Shown: positions 54,491-55,453 of the stretch, piece by piece
Position numbering within the stretch: the first letter of the stretch is position 1
Layout of the letters: each line of letters starts with the position of its first letter
Position numbers and translations under genes: made by a program
Notes under the pieces: generated by a model
Told to the model about the DNA's origin: nothing
Database searches by the model: none
What the model saw: the letters and a program-made list of their open reading frames with translations, nothing else
Assembly: GCF_003334385.1 (NCBI RefSeq)
Contig: NZ_QOWN01000011.1
From: Escherichia coli
GTDB lineage: Bacteria; Pseudomonadota; Gammaproteobacteria; Enterobacterales; Enterobacteriaceae
Length of the DNA: 64,000 bases
Direction: 5' to 3' (one strand)

Positions 54491-55453
54491 TTATTGCACG
54501 AAGCGCGAGGTAACGTACTGGCTGTAATCATTCGCTACAGCCGGGACCTTGCCCTGCTCTTTCAAAAACTGCGCGGTGTCGATGATCGCTTTGTTCACCG
54601 GTCCGGTCAGTTCTGCCGTTTGTTGCTGCGGCGTCAGATAGGTATTCCCCTTCACCAGCCCCGGAACGTCACCTTCAGGCACGCCGCTTAAACGCGCCAG
54701 TTTGCTGATGTTTTCCGGCTGTTTCAGCCACACGTCTGGGTTAGCAATGTACGGTTGCTGAGCATCGATGGCGCTTTTAGCGAACGCTTTCACGACCTCA
54801 GGATGTTTCTCGGCAAAATCTTTGCGCACCACCTAGACGTCCAGCGTTGGCGCGCCCCACTGCCCGACCTGTTCAGAATCGGTCAACACCTTGCCGTCTT
54901 TTTCCAGGGCGTTAACCGCCGGTGCCCAGACATAAGCACCATCAATATCTCCCCGCTGCCAGGCAGCGATAATCGCGGGCGGCTGCAGGTTCACAATCTC
55001 CACTTGCCCGGGTTTAATGCCCCAGTGTTTCAGTGCCGCCAGCAGGCTGTAGTGGGTGGTGGAGATAAACGGTACGGCGATGCGTTTGCCAATCAGATCT
55101 TCCGGTTTGCTGATAGTTTTCTTTACCACCAGCGCTTCGGAGTTACCCAGTTTTGACGCCAGCAAGAAGACTTCAATCGGCACCTGTTGGCTGGCTGCAA
55201 CCGCTAACGGGCTGGAACCGAGGTTGCCGATTTGCACGTCGCCTGAAGCCAGCGCCCGCACGATGCTGGCTCCGCTGTCAAACTTACGCCAGTCCACGGT
55301 TGCTCCGCTTTCTTTAGCAAAGGTGTTGTCGGCCTGAGCCACTTTCGCCGGTTCGGCTGAGGTTTGATACGCCACGGTGACGTTCACCGCCTGTGCCTGA
55401 AAAGCGATGAATGCCAGTGCGGCAAGAAGTGTGTTACGCGATGAAATTGCCAT
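54491..55453 (-). pseudogene. tauA: taurine ABC transporter periplasmic binding protein interrupted by one in-frame TAG
   Basis: N-terminal 206 codons (MAISSRNTLLAALAFIAFQAQA...QWGAPTLDV) then TAG (complement of 54833-54835, plus-strand cta) then 113 codons in the same frame (VVRKDFAEKHPEVVKAF...TSRFVQ); 206+1+113 = 320 codons. Confidence 0.85.

Follow-up and report, generated by a model that had tools for sequence, protein, structure and literature searches.

Probable recent inactivation of tauA by a Trp207 amber codon in a wild Escherichia coli clone close to K-12

The tau operon and its interrupted first gene

The window analyzed here is a stretch of 64,000 nucleotides from the Escherichia coli contig NZ_QOWN01000011.1 (RefSeq assembly GCF_003334385.1). 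In reverse orientation, it is collinear with the segment between 375.2 and 441.9 kb on the chromosome of K-12 MG1655. Its minus strand carries tauA, tauB, tauC and tauD in this order, followed by hemB, which is the genomic context characteristic of TauA. The first of these genes (54491..55453, minus strand) corresponds to the periplasmic binding protein of the taurine ABC transporter. It extends from an ATG at 55453 to a TAA at 54493..54491 and comprises 320 sense positions and the stop, in a frame that is broken at codon 207, so that the copy in the window is a pseudogene. On the minus strand, the codons CAG TGG GGC GCG CCA ACG CTG GAC GTC are followed by TAG (54835..54833) and then by GTG GTG CGC AAA GAT TTT.

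A previous sequence-only reading of this stretch had placed an in-frame amber codon at 54833-54835, splitting a single open reading frame, and its coordinates, frame and codon arithmetic all proved correct. Indeed, 206 codons precede the TAG and 113 follow it in the same frame, and 206 + 1 + 113 gives 320, the length of K-12 TauA. The same arithmetic, together with the single frame, upholds the reading's further claim of a point nonsense change rather than an indel, and alignment of the 963-nucleotide gene with that of K-12 MG1655 revealed no indel. Only one of the 963 nucleotides differs between the two copies. The G at K-12 position 385851 is an A at position 54834 of the window, which converts TGG (Trp207) to TAG (54833..54835, minus strand), precisely the reference codon and the single G-to-A transition that had been anticipated. 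TGG also occupies this codon in the wild isolates MEI4BO-21, ECCHD184 and JNQH497 and in seven further relatives, and the window therefore holds an in-frame stop where intact orthologues have a sense codon. Chance is not a concern for the TAG, since it is a discrete base change in a gene that 5397 of the 5426 complete E. coli genomes contain at ≥80% query coverage.

The lesion divides the gene into two parts. The N-terminal product of 206 codons (54836..55453, minus strand) comprises the signal peptide, the first segment of domain I, the whole of domain II, the second hinge and Asp205. The remainder of 113 codons (54491..54832, minus strand), presumably untranslated, corresponds to residues 208-320 and the second segment of domain I. 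A GTG lies directly after the TAG, and ORF callers report this remainder as a GTG-started open reading frame; it is also annotated as a separate gene in public assemblies.

The other three tau genes were described in the same reading as intact, and their open reading frames are so, each of them scoring above its NCBIfam equivalog cut-off. The ATP-binding subunit gene tauB (53711..54478, minus strand) shows zero nucleotide differences from K-12 and scores 520 bits against NF008421 (cut-off 357), and the taurine dioxygenase gene tauD (52039..52890, minus strand), also with zero nucleotide differences, scores 555.6 bits against NF007104 (cut-off 313). The permease gene tauC (52887..53714, minus strand) is a full-length open reading frame with 560 bits against NF007545 (cut-off 342) and a single missense change relative to K-12, V209G at position 53089. 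This change lies within a run of nine C on the plus strand (53086..53094), or nine G on the coding strand. The nine-G run at codon 209, which V209G itself creates, could be prone to slippage, and low-complexity filtering of this run accounts for the lack of any match to a 55-mer centered on the SNP. V209G is a widespread polymorphism, with 816 blocks listed for the exact TauC-G209 protein. All seven relatives that were examined with TauC-G209 have TGG at tauA codon 207, and a 320-residue TauA is called in six of the seven. V209G was considered as collateral decay following the loss of tauA and was rejected on these grounds, namely its 816 blocks and its occurrence beside an intact 320-residue tauA in six of seven relatives.

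Upstream of tauA, the intergenic region on the promoter side (55454..56068, minus strand) is identical to K-12, and comparison with MG1655 found no difference between positions 54834 and 56624. We take this region to be the site of the tauA promoter and of its regulators. Scans with Rfam and for promoters and terminators returned nothing relevant at or close to the TAG.

Several other loci in the window also differ from K-12. The PIG-L deacetylase family gene yaiS (56069..56740, plus strand) is an open reading frame of 223 codons, as it is in most of the other E. coli loci fetched. Its codon 186 (56624..56626) is CAG (Gln186) in the window and TAG in K-12 MG1655, which means that the 185-residue YaiS of K-12 is an amber-truncated allele; the base change is synonymous in the small antisense gene ykiC. 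The gene for the 968-residue autotransporter YaiT (about 47528..50434, minus strand) is intact, with an empty IS site at about 48976..48979, and its K-12 copy is a pseudogene split by IS3B. Likewise, yaiX, encoding a 193-residue hexapeptide-repeat acyltransferase (57924..58505, plus strand), is intact with an empty IS site at about 58090..58095, and the K-12 copy is a pseudogene split by IS2A. Rfam gave two matches to the REP-derived naRNA4 family, at 30733..30812 (minus strand) and 63887..63962 (plus strand). Repeat regions differ at two places, in copy number relative to K-12 between yaiL and frmB (61820..61928) and relative to ECCHD184 downstream of araJ (about 30768..30860).

Consequences for the binding protein

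Two profile models of TauA were used to gauge the products of the interrupted gene, NF008553 with a cut-off of 490 bits and TIGR01729 with a cut-off of 304 bits. With Trp207 restored, the protein scores 697.4 bits against NF008553 over positions 1-320. The encoded 206-residue product reaches 452.6 bits, covers profile positions 1-206 of 320 and falls below the cut-off of 490, and the 113-residue remainder scores 223.5 bits over profile positions 209-320 of 320. Against TIGR01729, the 206-residue fragment scores 346 bits, above the cut-off of 304, and is still recognizably TauA by sequence alone. The encoded product is accordingly short of the full-length TauA equivalog, and the locus is tauA by descent.

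The Trp-restored protein is identical to the E. coli TauA whose structure has been solved (6SSY and others), in which the chain spans residues 23-319. In these structures, domain I is assembled from residues 23-104 and 202-319 and domain II from residues 105-201, with hinges at 103-106 and 200-202 (PMC6906117). Taurine is contacted by Gln30, Gly61, Gly79, Glu106, Thr132 and Asp205 (PMC6906117). A stop at codon 207 deletes residues 207-320 and thereby nearly all of the 202-319 segment; it spares the signal peptide, residues 23-104 of domain I, domain II and Asp205, and the two complete lobes that close on taurine are no longer encoded. That TauA would be truncated and non-functional, as had been proposed, is supported by the lesion and fits the domain map from the crystal structures (domain I = 23-104 + 202-319; PMC6906117).

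On this basis, translation is predicted to end after Val206 and to yield an exported fragment of 206 residues that lacks residues 207-320. Such a fragment of a two-lobed class II binding protein would be unable to adopt the closed, ligand-bound shape needed for docking on TauBC. Because domain I is expected not to fold without its second segment, there would be no closed, liganded TauA to dock on the transporter.

It is extremely unlikely that a function survives, whether in the 206-residue protein by itself or in both fragments combined, following re-initiation at the GTG. The idea draws on the fact that the N-terminal fragment retains six of the six listed ligand-contact residues (Q30, G61, G79, E106, T132 and D205), and on the GTG GTG directly after the TAG, at which a terminating ribosome could in principle restart. 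However, no strong Shine-Dalgarno sequence precedes the GTG, a C-terminal piece made in this manner would have no signal peptide and would remain in the cytoplasm, and domain I, being built from 23-104 and 202-319, cannot fold from its first segment alone.

Loss of TauA function is the preferred reading, and its physiological effect would be a narrow one. Taurine is carried by TauABC and not by SsuABC (PMC6906117). Since taurine is reported to enter only via TauABC, it is probably unusable as a sulfur source, and the strain can probably be regarded as one without taurine in its sulfur repertoire. The predicted phenotype is an inability to use taurine under sulfate or cysteine starvation, with other sulfur sources unaffected. 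Two further effects are conceivable. A terminator scan of the coding strand from the tauA stop to tauB found no terminator-like site; Rho-dependent nonsense polarity across the 342 untranslated nucleotides may lower the expression of tauBCD, and trace amounts of full-length TauA could arise from basal read-through of the UAG.

The amber allele in independent assemblies

A single-base change is the kind of difference that an error in sequencing or assembly could produce, with the genome truly reading TGG and the A at 54834 being an artefact. The reading has some appeal: a 55-mer centered on the TAG had no match among 5426 complete RefSeq E. coli genomes, against matches in 3747 of the 5426 for a control 55-mer with TGG. 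Nevertheless, the site lies outside any homopolymer, and the same A occurs in one NCBI draft genome and in at least two unrelated runs that were assembled separately, each of them showing 100% identity to the window for 10-21 kb and sharing its other private SNPs. This identity extends over 21,221 bp for the NCBI draft GCA_012738655.1 (contig DABDAA010000006.1), reached via the lineage's SbmA-A247V variant, over 17,016 bp for a contig of run ERR4578729 present in 4 samples, and over 9,889 bp for a contig of ERR1948963 present in 2 samples. The TAG is included in each of these matches, and each contig also has every other private SNP of the window within its span. An error is therefore very improbable, and the lesion is reproduced in independent sequence data.

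In addition, the exact 206-residue product is recorded in assemblies of many sequencing runs. For GCA_012738655.1 no tauA product is on record at this position, which would fit an annotation of the gene as a pseudogene. The lineage can also be followed through other proteins, as five contigs, whose accessions belong to four NCBI assemblies, encode its QueA (D222Y and D235Y) and AraJ (A59T) variants. Together with the identical independent assemblies, the presence of these variants on further contigs indicates that the TAG allele belongs to a real, repeatedly sampled clone.

Private changes of the clone also affect queA and phoA. In queA (minus strand), two G-to-T changes (on the K-12 plus strand) lie 39 bp apart at positions 16233 and 16272 and give D235Y and D222Y; this pair is private to the clone, and the exact protein was found on five contigs only. 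In phoA, a private change at position 40139 gives A21T in alkaline phosphatase. Residue 21 is presumably the -1 position of the signal-peptidase cleavage site, which falls between TKA and RTPE, and the efficiency of processing might be affected.

A wild background and the question of suppression

The window differs from MG1655 by 18 scattered substitutions and a cluster of differences in the repeat region at 61820..61928, and it does not contain the IS3B (in yaiT) or IS2A (in yaiX) of K-12. Over 24 kb, its closest complete genomes belong not to K-12 but to wild isolates, whose sources were soil, chicken and human urine. The nearest of them (MEI4BO-21, ECCHD184 and JNQH497) have TGG at codon 207 and hold non-K-12 alleles in common with the window, for example an untruncated yaiS and the lack of the IS elements. 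Because the nearest complete genomes are wild and have these same alleles, the host is, as judged from its sequence, no laboratory strain but a wild, ST10-like relative of K-12. Derivation from a laboratory or mutagenized K-12 strain, which would make supE or supF plausible, was considered and rejected, as IS2A and IS3B are missing and the K-12-specific SNPs examined, at 47633, 56624, 60649 and 61026, all show the wild-type alleles common to wild isolates.

This background bears directly on whether the stop is read through by an amber-suppressor tRNA of the supE, supF or supD kind, giving a working full-length TauA in which Gln, Tyr or Ser takes the place of Trp207. Natural coliforms have been reported to carry amber suppressors. 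Moreover, Trp207 of TauA aligns with a Tyr in E. coli SsuA, so a substituted protein could work. Against this, suppressors are rare and costly, the background is wild, without the K-12 IS insertions or K-12-specific SNPs, and is no laboratory supE or supF strain, and ARAGORN found zero tRNA genes in the 64-kb window, as is expected for this chromosomal region. Furthermore, independent lineages have TGA at codon 207, which is beyond rescue by an amber suppressor, and the loss is evidently tolerated there unrescued. Suppression in this strain is accordingly highly unlikely.

Programmed recoding of the pyrrolysine type would entail a conserved UAG together with pyl genes, and the codon is instead TGG in the 3747 complete genomes that match the control 55-mer, as it is in every close relative examined. 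At codon 207, TAG is a rare derived state, and TGA is found at the same codon elsewhere. To our knowledge, E. coli has no pyl genes.

The amber mutation appears to be recent. All seven relatives with TauC-G209 retain TGG, which places the amber later than TauC-G209 and on the terminal branch. When K-12 and the three nearest complete genomes serve as the reference, about 12 substitutions in the 64 kb are private to the window, and each relative has a similar number of its own. A hypermutator lineage was rejected on this count, and because the branch leading to the window is similar in length to those of its relatives, hypermutation is not needed to account for it. That tauBCD are still intact is most simply explained by the youth of the mutation, which has left too little time for further decay.

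Recurrent loss of tauA and its controls

The window's allele is not the only stop known at this codon. Recurrence was assessed by exact look-up of N-terminal fragments, for which ten places were listed per codon and only real in-frame stops and distinct haplotypes were counted. For the fragment ending before W207, 53 blocks were recorded, and ten of the ten places listed are real stops. When sorted by N-terminal DNA haplotype and by stop codon, they fall into seven distinct combinations. Five of these combinations are TAG and two are TGA among the ten places listed, and one TGA allele lies on the same haplotype as a TAG allele. Seven distinct combinations imply at least seven independent origins of a stop at W207.

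Such numbers could be taken to mean that the loss of tauA is adaptive, or that codon 207 is a mutational hotspot, with recurrence reflecting selection or hypermutability and not neutral decay. The other tryptophan codons of the gene provide a direct comparison, one that is semi-quantitative from codon to codon, since contig-end artefacts and repeatedly sampled clones inflate the block counts. W199 yielded 56 blocks, with five of ten listed places being real stops in five distinct haplotype and stop combinations; W176 yielded 90 blocks, with six of ten in four combinations; and W165 yielded 71 blocks, with ten of ten in eight combinations. Stops at these codons are thus at levels comparable to W207, with several haplotypes each, and codon 207 was rejected as a hotspot since W199, W176 and W165 are similarly frequent. 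As a control, the fragment ending before W93 of the essential gene hemB yielded 62 blocks, and none of its ten listed places is a real stop or contributes a combination; all ten are contigs that end 1-2 nucleotides past the fragment. In all, this artefact was seen at nineteen of the loci collected, where N-terminal fragments ending before a TGG match contigs that end 1-2 nucleotides into the codon, and block counts therefore overstate the number of nonsense alleles.

Other features of the recurrence also weigh against adaptation or hypermutability at codon 207. No CCWGG Dcm site is present in the local context, GTC TGG GTG. All of the lineages examined are rare terminal clones, and the TAG allele is in none of the complete genomes. 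The overall pattern is as expected when a weakly constrained gene is sampled very deeply. In spite of the seven combinations in ten listed places and the independent origins that they imply, an adaptive loss or a hotspot is therefore distinctly improbable.

Further lesions are found as well, and other strains have disrupted tauA genes with N-terminal products of 194, 197, 218 and 220 residues. At five loci on different backgrounds, a 220-residue N-terminal TauA overlaps the 113-residue open reading frame, which implies a frameshift before codon 207. At least one of these assemblies has many broken genes, and some of the 220-residue cases may be indel errors from long reads. The recurrence of lesions at many codons of tauA points to weak purifying selection and to no special property of codon 207. 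It indicates that tauA as a whole tolerates inactivation, being a dispensable gene under weak purifying selection that is useful under certain conditions.

A more specific proposal is that taurine uptake is lost by convergent adaptation in some niche, with the stops at W165, W176, W199 and W207 and the frameshifts, usually beside intact tauBCD, as its traces and the present clone as one instance. The controls do not support an adaptive convergent loss of tauA, and this proposal has a low probability.

Interpretation and comparison with known systems

Taken together, these observations make it very likely that the window holds a young loss-of-function allele of tauA, private to one lineage, that arose by a spontaneous amber mutation at Trp207 in a wild ST10-like clone near K-12. 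The initiating event would have been a spontaneous G:C-to-A:T transition that turned the TGG of Trp207 into TAG. The clone represented by GCA_012738655.1 is probably unable to scavenge sulfur from taurine, and for the purpose of annotation its tauA is a pseudogene. Beyond strain annotation the allele is of little importance, as it represents the routine decay of a dispensable gene. Nonsense alleles of tauA at many codons, with none seen in the hemB W93 control, fit a weak, condition-dependent selection on the taurine system, and the recurrence of one nonsense allele under very deep sampling is no evidence of a hotspot.

Viewed against known systems, this is an ordinary loss-of-function lesion in a well-studied gene, whose anatomy and context match known biology and which is of an already known kind. 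The nearest counterpart is tauA of K-12 itself (b0365; structures 6SSY, 6ST0, 6ST1, 6STL and 8PXH), which is the same gene at the same location (yaiS - tauABCD - hemB) and has the same sequence bar one base. Codon 207 is TGG in K-12 and TAG in the window, where the product ends at Val206, and the host of the window, unlike K-12, is free of IS2A and IS3B. Other natural losses of tauA in E. coli and Shigella (stops at W165, W176 and W199, TGA at W207, products of 194 and 197 residues, and frameshifted products of 218 and 220 residues) are likewise small lesions in rare lineages in which tauBCD mostly remain open. They differ from the present allele in the position or type of the lesion, and over the flanks their backgrounds share 96-98.5% identity with the window. 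Finally, the classical laboratory amber mutations that are rescued by supE or supF likewise arise from TGG-to-TAG changes that place a UAG in a non-essential gene. The background of the window, by contrast, is wild, differs from a laboratory suppressor strain and bears no sign of a suppressor.
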